This document shows, piece after piece, positions 39,363-43,928 of a stretch of DNA of 64,000 nucleotides. Each line of letters opens with the position of its first letter. The stretch's first letter is position 1. Made by a program: the position numbers and the translations under genes. The DNA comes from Nitrosotalea sp. (GTDB lineage: Bacteria > Methylomirabilota > Methylomirabilia > Rokubacteriales > CSP1-6). The stretch covers positions 6,037 to 70,036 of the forward strand of contig DATIWG010000004.1 of the NCBI GenBank assembly GCA_035519555.1, read 5' to 3'. The notes beneath the pieces are model-generated. The model was not told the origin of the DNA and made no database searches. It saw only the letters and a program-made list of their open reading frames with translations.

Positions 39363-39413
39363 GCCGCCCGGGTCGGGGTCTCCCGCGGAAGCGGGGCCTC
39401 GATGCCGGGCGGC
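39363..39413. terminator. GC-rich imperfect hairpin between convergent genes (terminator- or REP-like)
   Basis: GCCGCCCGG...CCGGGCGGC outer stem; inner CCCGC-GGAA-GCGGG; no U-tract. Confidence 0.4.
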
Positions 39414-39423
39414 TCCTCGGTCG

Positions 39424-39993
39424 TTATCGTGCTCCGGCCGGGCCCTGCCGATCCCGAACGACGCAGAAGCCCTGGGCCTCGATGCCGAGCGGCACGTTGA
39501 GCTTGCTGCGAAAGTTCTCCAGGGCCACCGCGGCGGTGAGCTCGACGATCTGCCCCTCGTCGAGGAACGACCGCAGCCGGGCGAAGAGCTCGTCGCTCAC
39601 CCGCTGCCCGGTGATGGTCATGACCTCCGCGTACTCGAGCGCGGCCCGTTCGACCGGCGAGAAGCGCCGGCTCTCTCGCCAGGTCGGCACCTCGGCCACC
39701 TTGGCCTCGTCCGCCCCCGCCTGCATCCCCCGGGATGCGTTGATGTCGATTCAGAACGGACAGCCGTTGATCAGGGCGACGCGCAGGTAGACCAGCGGCA
39801 GCAGCGGGGCGGACAGCCTCCCCGACCGCTCGATGGAGGCCCCGAGCTGCTTGGCCGCCTTCAAAATAGGCGGACAGTGGGCCAGGACCTTGGTGGTGTT
39901 CAGCAGTGTGCCGAAGATCCCGCGCTCCTTGTCGAAGACGTCCTTCAGGATCGGGTCGCCGGCGTCGTCCTCGATCTCGCGGACCCTCGGCAT
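39424..39993 (-). CDS. AhpD/carboxymuconolactone decarboxylase family protein, probable selenoprotein (CPFU, 189 aa)
   Basis: Two in-frame ORFs are separated only by TGA at 39751-39753: RVALINGCPF*IDINASRG...FSPVERAALEYAE...DEGQIVELT....ENFRSKLN. The TGA sits at the second Cys of the CxxC motif and is followed by a hairpin. Confidence 0.8.
39723..39750 (-). promoter_or_regulatory. Putative bacterial SECIS element
   Basis: mRNA after UGA: 12 nt, then stem GCAUCC, loop CGGG, stem GGAUGC; the loop starts 19 nt after UGA with G in its second position. Confidence 0.65.
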
Positions 39994-39997
39994 CGGG

Positions 39998-40477
39998 CTA
40001 CCCGCCGACCGTCTTCCGGATGCTGCCGAGGTGATCGGTGATGTGGTTGATCAGGATGCCCTCGACGACCTGCTGGGTGGTCATGGCCGGCATGCCCGTC
40101 AGCACGGTGCCGCTCCGGGCCAGCTCGACGTCGGAGAGCCCCCGCACCGTCGCCGCCGCCGCGGCGACCCCCTTCTGATGAAGGGTCAGGGTCTCGGCCT
40201 TGGTGCAGCCGGCGTGCTCCTTGGCGTGCTTGGCGTTCATCTCGTCGAGCATGGCCCCGGTGAAGTTGGGGATCGACTGGCCGGACGCGATGGTCTTCAC
40301 GATGCCGGCGATCGGTTCGTGGGCGCCGGCCACGTGGTGCGCGGTGACGCCCACGGACCACTGCTCGGCGGCGGTGACCTTCTTCCAGTCGGCATCCGAG
40401 AGCTTCCCGAGTGCGGCGGTCATCTCGGCGGCCTTGGCCTCGAACTGCTTGGCGAGCGACTCAGCGCGTGCGCCCAT
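39998..40477 (-). CDS. DinB-like protein
   Basis: GGAGG RBS; WSVGVTAHHVA and C-terminal NHITDH metal-binding His pattern. Confidence 0.75.
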   Translation of the reverse strand: MGARAESLAKQFEAKAAEMTAALGKLSDADWKKVTAAEQWSVGVTAHHVAGAHEPIAGIVKTIASGQSIPNFTGAMLDEMNAKHAKEHAGCTKAETLTLHQKGVAAAAATVRGLSDVELARSGTVLTGMPAMTTQQVVEGILINHITDHLGSIRKTVGG

Positions 40478-43793: not shown

Positions 43794-43928
43794 CCGACTC
43801 ACCCGGGCTCCTTCGTTCGAGGATGGCTCGTGAACTGCGGGGCGAGGGCGATGGGGGATAGCAGGGACGCGCTGGCCTGCCACTGTCTTCCGCGAAGACG
43901 ACCGCAGTATACATGATCCGGCCGCGGG

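Follow-up and report, generated by a model that had tools for sequence, protein, structure and literature searches.

An AhpD/CMD-family gene interrupted by an in-frame UGA in a Rokubacterial genome is predicted to encode a CxxU selenoprotein

The window analysed here is a stretch of 64,000 nucleotides (C4:6037-70036 of its assembly) from an uncultured MAG which is 83.6% complete. On its minus strand a reading frame runs from an ATG at 39993 to a TAA, and the sole internal stop in that frame is a TGA at codon 81 (39753..39751). The initial annotation had proposed that two short ORFs at this place are a single frame broken only by the TGA, and translation confirmed this. Under NCBI table 11 the frame is split into 39993..39751 (80 aa) and 39726..39424 (100 aa, starting at ATG 39726, which is M90). 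If the TGA is read as a residue, the product is 189 amino acids long, with the local sequence ...ALINGCPF-U-IDINASRGMQ... around the interruption.

Directly upstream lies a DinB-like gene, which is probably co-transcribed with the interrupted gene here. Past it comes an ABC-F ATPase gene in divergent orientation, and the gene on the downstream side, for a zinc alcohol dehydrogenase, is convergent. The DinB-like gene was considered as a conserved partner and rejected: it adjoins the gene in just 5 of 80 orthologue loci, all of them the closest relatives (80-88% identical). Among these 80 loci the upstream neighbour is more often an M28 peptidase gene (34 loci) or one for a class-I methyltransferase (29 loci). 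These are no obvious redox partners, and no conserved redox partner gene was found in the gene context of the 80 loci.

Table. Positions, strand and particulars of the features at the locus, in coordinates of the window.
Feature	Position	Strand	Particulars
CDS of predicted 189-residue CMD/AhpD-family selenoprotein	39424..39993	-	ATG 39993, predicted Sec codon 81, TAA 39426..39424
In-frame UGA, predicted U81, second redox residue of C78-P-F-U81	39751..39753	-	TGA in all orthologue loci; Cys in distant homologues
Cys78 codon (TGT), putative partner of Sec81 in CxxU	39760..39762	-	invariant in alignment A3
12-nt spacer between UGA and hairpin, codons I82 D83 I84 N85	39739..39750	-	same length in orthologues examined
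SECIS-type hairpin, perfect 6-bp stem	39723..39738	-	begins 12 nt after UGA
DinB/MDMPI_N-like gene	39998..40477	-	PF12867 + PF11716; stop 4 nt before the ATG of the predicted selenoprotein

The 189-residue protein matches the Pfam CMD family (PF02627) at 54.7 bits, against a gathering threshold of 23, over residues 42-123, which span the UGA. The best NCBIfam model is NF053654 (E 7.8e-40, 136.5 bits against an equivalog cut-off of 310). TIGR01926 (peroxidase-related enzyme), which is the entry "AhpD-like protein" in PMC13188914, gave 39.5 bits and stays below its curated cut-off of 81.8. The nearest solved structures are those of PA0269/AhpD from P. aeruginosa (2ijc, 2o4d, 7xw1; E about 1.5e-18). 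A CxxC motif had been expected at the interrupted site, and the alignment bears this out: INGCAYCVNMH of PA0269 lies against INGCPFUIDIN, so that U81 falls on the second CxxC cysteine, and distant homologues also have Cys there. Asn85 falls opposite the His of CAYCVNMH in PA0269, so that the His of the CxxCxxxH pattern is replaced.

The structure was predicted with AlphaFold2 from a 22-row alignment, giving a model with a mean pLDDT of 81 and values above 90 over most of residues 60-160. C78 and U81 are placed at the start of a helix (79-91) which crosses the UGA position. A Foldseek search with the model returned 7xw1 with a TM score of 0.94 (target-normalised), an rmsd of 1.2 A over 133 residues and a probability of 1.00; lower in the ranking are further "antioxidant defence" proteins of the AhpD/CMD type and Bmp8, a debrominase of the CMD fold. 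As modelled, the protein has the all-helical AhpD fold with its redox motif at a helix N-terminus.

Alignment A3, which holds 22 sequences, shows H39, D83 and E159-N160 to be invariant, and at position 85 the Sec orthologues have Asn, the four Cys homologues Gly. One further cysteine, C177 (39463-39465, minus strand), sits in the C-terminal sequence ...EAQGFC and is kept in at least 90% of the 22 homologues, whether these have Sec or Cys at the redox site. The tail of the model to which it belongs is of low confidence (pLDDT under 50 from residue 176 on), and C177 could be a third redox residue.

Both halves of the gene had been described as intact. Over 93 pairs, codons 2-80 have a median dN/dS of 0.27 and codons 82-178 one of 0.31, a pattern of substitution which indicates purifying selection of similar strength on the two halves of the predicted selenoprotein gene. 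These values were calculated by NG86 and serve solely to compare one half with the other, since dS is probably underestimated because of strong codon bias.

The TGA was followed across relatives at several depths. In the phylum, 121 of 201 species-representative genomes match the protein (E up to 1e-20), and nearly all of the matches listed have an in-frame TGA. The first stop is the TGA at codon 81 in 30/30 of the best loci, where its surroundings always read NGCPF*(I/M)D(I)NASR, and codon 81 is TGA in 80/80 loci from named GTDB records. The two sets overlap, with some contigs identical between them, and the larger one consists mostly of Candidatus Rokubacteria/Rokuibacteriota/Methylomirabilota MAGs plus Alphaproteobacteria (Reyranella, Stellaceae, Rhodospirillales). 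Cys is found at column 81 in full-length homologues of 40-48% identity (P0090, P0102, P0109 and P0119), and no Cys form was seen above about 50% identity among the close orthologues examined. Thus the TGA is not private to one strain with TGC in its close relatives, which would have pointed to a plain nonsense mutation; Cys occurs solely in distant homologues. Many of these same orthologue genes end in an ordinary TGA terminator, and TGA is therefore not globally reassigned in them.

The Alphaproteobacterial orthologues (loci L076-L122) come from soil and groundwater, are 61-66% identical to the Rokubacterial protein, and all have the TGA and a co-varying hairpin. Among them is Reyranella soli NBRC 108950 (locus L088, 61% identical), which is in culture. 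This degree of identity between proteins of Rokubacteria and of soil Alphaproteobacteria suggests that the gene passed horizontally from one phylum to the other, along with its SECIS. Six loci (L048, L063, L065, L066, L096 and L124) are Rokubacteria-type orthologues of 66-83% identity with the identical hairpin, in records labelled as Solirubrobacterales, Dormiibacterota, Verrucomicrobiia, the archaeon Nitrosocosmicus, or Binatia. Mis-binning or an erroneous taxon label probably explains these records, which would then not be real occurrences.

It had also been anticipated that gene callers would split or truncate such a gene. Most of the homologues in the database are in fact C-terminal fragments of 103-119 aa which start at M90 and are named "alkylhydroperoxidase family enzyme" or "hypothetical". 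Close homologues which the database gives as "full-length" (P0002, P0003, P0004, P0005 and P0006) show G, S, L or W where Sec is predicted. Because G and W are what TGA encodes under tables 25 and 4, some metagenome callers probably applied one of those tables.

The machinery for selenocysteine (Sec) was sought in the same assembly, and the four components whose absence would have spoken for a plain stop are all present. On contig C32 a tRNA-Sec(UCA) found by aragorn (C32:9393-9490; 71.3 bits with Rfam RF01852, whose gathering score is 47) lies a short way upstream of selA (C32:10925-12277, 583 bits), and selA adjoins selB (C32:12499-14382, 384 bits), so that selC, selA and selB form a cluster. 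The gene for SelD is at C48:18408-19349 (L001; 338 bits) and has an in-frame TGA of its own, in ...AYAACAG*ASKMGPGDL..., within the N-terminal Gly-rich segment which we take to be the expected site of the SelD active-site Cys/Sec. The matches to selA, selB and selD all exceed their curated cut-offs. Judged by the genes it encodes for tRNA-Sec, SelA, SelB and SelD, the genome is equipped to decode UGA as Sec.

A second SelD-like match (C82:3444-4352, L002; 261.6 bits) has no internal stop and lies inside a stop-free frame of 1491 aa, which might be a fusion protein or just a long open frame in GC-rich DNA. The genome also has a second CMD-family paralogue outside the window (C80:24134-24622), 35% identical, with a TGA at the CxxU position (NGCEF*QDANAAVG) and a hairpin, GCUGCC-GUG-GGCAGC, beginning 12 nt after the UGA. 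Paralogues with Cys, on contigs C88 and C111, have the motifs NRCRYC, NGCDYC and NGCEYC. The window itself was screened for further in-frame TGAs with Cys/Ser/Thr-type motifs, by a crude procedure which other selenoproteins may escape. It gave 75 motif matches among 222 TGAs with open flanks. Apart from the focal TGA, the matches look like out-of-frame noise rich in Arg, Ser and Pro, and the most protein-like of them, at 43801 on the minus strand, translates to junk.

The hairpin that the initial annotation had drawn twelve nucleotides past the UGA was found at exactly that place, with a 5' arm GCAUCC (39738..39733), a loop CGGG (39732..39729) and a 3' arm GGAUGC (39728..39723). Taken from one sequence alone it is weak evidence, mildly unusual at best. 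A 71-nt single-sequence fold gave a z of -0.61, which is not significant, and such folding of the UGA region is uninformative in DNA of 70% GC. The window contains 1308 TGA triplets, and 2.6% of them have a perfect stem of at least 6 bp 9-15 nt further on; in 1.5% the loop of this stem also has a G at its first or second position. The minimum free energy fold also offered a long-range stem enclosing the UGA, which was set aside because it needs the third position of Pro79, a variable site. When 39400-40000 was scanned with Rfam (E up to 10), no curated family for the hairpin came up, and the sole match was a chance one to an sRNA. It is the comparative data which carry the hairpin well beyond chance.

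The first comparison concerns synonymous sites in 73 distinct Rokubacterial CDSs, in which 83 degenerate codons are conserved at 90% or more. The mean third-position entropy of those 83 codons is 0.76 bit, and it is zero solely at codons 84, 86, 87 and 89, of which 86, 87 and 89 belong to the stem. Ala86 is GCA in 73/73 sequences, though the other Ala codons of the gene mostly end in G or C. The third positions of the flanking I82 and N85 and of the loop codon R88 vary freely. The conserved peptide IDINASRG could be behind part of the nucleotide conservation, but it does not account for the frozen synonymous sites.

The other comparison concerns changes in the stem. In 17 distinct Alphaproteobacterial orthologues, columns 15-21 pair with 27-33 to make a stem of 7 bp, which is capped by a 5-nt loop of consensus CGUGY. 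In this stem 97.5% of cells are paired and 4 of the 7 pairs have changed on both sides, one pair being, for example, U-A, C-G or A-U. The covariation score was reached by 0/500 shuffles, and slid registers left 39-59% paired. The residues encoded at one position are A, V, Y, L or F and those at the partner position V, M, A, T, L, R or K; the amino acids shift so that the pairs persist, and therefore it is the RNA which dictates the protein sequence at those positions. This formal count covers the Alphaproteobacterial group only, and the remaining groups were compared by eye. A sister family from the same order, with 44-46% protein identity, has U-A in place of G-C as its outer pair, giving UCAUCC CGGG GGAUGA, and two paralogue groups have wholly different stems, GCUGCC GUG GGCAGC and GGCUCUGCC GUS GGCAGAGCC (S = C or G). 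Because the loop length differs (3, 4 or 5 nt) and the coding alignment is gapless, the hairpin types do not enter a single alignment. The spacer has the same length in all orthologues examined, and the hairpins of the paralogue groups begin 10-12 nt after the UGA.

A hairpin of the bacterial SECIS type with an early loop G had been suggested for this site. The G is at the second loop position in the CGGG type of the focal gene and in the CGUGY type, and at the first in the GUG type. The hairpin is kept among the TGA-bearing homologues, with its frozen synonymous sites and compensatory changes, and this pattern indicates that it is under selection at the level of RNA.

With this evidence at hand, three other accounts of the TGA can be weighed. 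Perhaps the gene is simply broken, either as a pseudogene with a nonsense mutation or through an assembly or sequencing error, and the hairpin arose by chance in GC-rich DNA. Such an account could point to the insignificant single-sequence fold, to the comparable hairpins that follow 1.5-2.6% of the TGA triplets of the window, and to the gene callers, which handle the gene as broken. It would need the same codon to have been hit in 30/30 and 80/80 loci of different species in two phyla, while selection purified both halves, the synonymous sites of the hairpin stayed frozen, its stems co-varied and the genome kept a complete Sec machinery, and we regard it as extremely improbable. The orthologue loci differ at 12-39% of their residues and are therefore not copies of one contaminating sequence.

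It is very unlikely that the locus makes two small proteins, of 80 aa and of 100 aa (from ATG 39726, M90), which perhaps associate after translation. A single Pfam CMD domain (42-123) and a single helix (79-91) cross the TGA, residues 82-89 are kept as protein, and the homologues with Cys are single chains. Both table-11 ORFs do exist, and M90 is conserved in the Rokubacterial orthologues and is where the database entries begin; its AUG, however, belongs to the 3' arm of the hairpin, and the Alphaproteobacterial orthologues have V, A, L, T, R or K at this position, without a start codon. As for the decoding of the UGA as something other than Sec, through near-cognate read-through (Trp/Cys) or a reassignment as in NCBI tables 4 and 25, the W or G at the column in some database translations (P0005, P0006 and P0002) would fit. 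But TGA is a normal stop in these genomes and ends many orthologous genes, the Cys at the column in homologues makes a classic Cys/Sec exchange, and a conserved, co-varying hairpin stands at the SECIS position in a genome with a full selABCD set. This decoding is highly improbable as well.

Altogether, UGA-81 very probably encodes selenocysteine, as the sequence comparisons suggest. The proposal of a 189-aa selenoprotein, with Sec as a predicted residue, has thus gained the support of the conserved TGA, the Sec machinery and the selection on the hairpin. We are led to a reading which we hold with high confidence: 39993..39424 on the minus strand is one gene, and its product is a 189-residue oxidoreductase of the AhpD/CMD fold with a Cys78-Pro-Phe-Sec81 centre, made by SelB- and hairpin-directed Sec insertion and working by AhpD-type redox chemistry. 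When the ribosome reaches UGA-81, the hairpin 12 nt further on would recruit SelB carrying Sec-tRNA(Sec), and Sec would be put in at this codon in place of termination. The C78/U81 pair at the helix N-terminus would then cycle between a selenol/thiol and a selenenylsulfide. By analogy with thiol-dependent AhpD-type proteins, the product most likely reduces peroxide or another oxidised substrate or partner. We infer Sec insertion, SelB binding, the substrate and the chemistry from the sequence.

Peroxidase chemistry is an analogy here and no demonstration, because the His of PA0269 is replaced by Asn85. In AhpD of M. tuberculosis the His after the CxxC is a proton relay, and the chemistry of the predicted selenoprotein may differ from that of the M. 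tuberculosis enzyme, because it has Asn85 in place of this His and conserved residues of its own (H39, D83, E159-N160 and C177). The NGCPFU-IDIN clade has Sec in every close orthologue examined, is without the PA0269 His, has its own invariant His39, Asp83 and Glu159-Asn160, and keeps Cys177 of the GFC motif nearly invariant. That the clade is a distinct AhpD-fold subfamily, possibly with a chemistry other than peroxide reduction, is conceivable but unlikely. If it were so, the reaction might be, for example, a reductive dehalogenation as in Bmp8, which is among the structural matches.

The result is mainly an annotation matter. A real and intact gene is stored as fragments or as W/G read-through forms, and therefore selenoproteome counts and redox inventories of Rokubacteria/Methylomirabilota and of soil Alphaproteobacteria miss or distort it. 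It is a sound correction with textbook-quality covariation of an in-frame SECIS, which will not surprise a selenoprotein specialist and opens no new question. It is also a clear example of a SECIS hairpin inside a coding region which constrains the choice of codons and of amino acids, and the cultured Reyranella strain makes experimental confirmation feasible.

The gene had been called a hidden selenoprotein. The mis-annotation is real, but "hidden" overstates the case, as the CxxU AhpD-like/CMD family is long established (PMC1088965, PMC2398784, PMC13188914). The statement that Sec-containing AhpD-like proteins had already been predicted is right: AhpD-like (COG2128, CxxU) and CMD-domain (CxxU) selenoproteins were defined in 2005 from Sargasso Sea data (Zhang, Fomenko & Gladyshev, PMC1088965). 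They belong to the commoner selenoprotein families of prokaryotes. In the GOS survey of 2008 (PMC2398784), "AhpD-like 1" (COG2128) was the fourth most abundant prokaryotic selenoprotein family, with 299 sequences, and "AhpD-like 2" (pfam02627) had 70 sequences and was relatively commoner in non-marine samples. A 2026 review holds several AhpD/CMD selenoprotein entries and cites a groundwater study with a Methylomirabilota MAG of 63 predicted selenoprotein genes (PMC13188914), and BSepDB has a page for the AhpD-like family (PMC13326102).

Like the known CxxU AhpD-like/CMD selenoproteins, the protein predicted here has a CMD/AhpD domain, Sec as the second residue of CxxU aligned to the CxxC of Cys homologues, a small SECIS hairpin with an apical-loop G just downstream of the UGA, and a presumed redox function. 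It differs from them in that its clade comes from soil and groundwater Rokubacteria and Alphaproteobacteria, that every close orthologue examined has Sec, and that the local motif is NGCPFU-IDIN, with Asn for the PA0269 His. PA0269/AhpD (2ijc, 2o4d, 7xw1) is its nearest solved structure, in which INGCAYC stands opposite INGCPFU; PA0269, in contrast, has Cys, is 145 aa long, lacks the first ~40 residues and has a His four residues past its second Cys. M. tuberculosis AhpD (1knc, 1gu9) has the same all-helical fold class and a CxxC at a helix N-terminus, but resembles the model only weakly (Foldseek E 0.1-1, TM about 0.55), and an AhpC or lipoamide-system context was not seen at the locus here. 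NF053654, "GroundWater_YciW", describes a YciW-related (seleno)protein, and its name already admits a selenoprotein form. Residues 1-175 align to positions 1-175 of the 179 of this model, but the score is so far under the equivalog cut-off that the protein is of a related subfamily and no member. It misses the equivalog cut-off of both nearest NCBIfam models and is therefore best placed as a sister subfamily within a known kind, and the literature already describes both CxxU AhpD-like selenoproteins and Methylomirabilota rich in selenoproteins.
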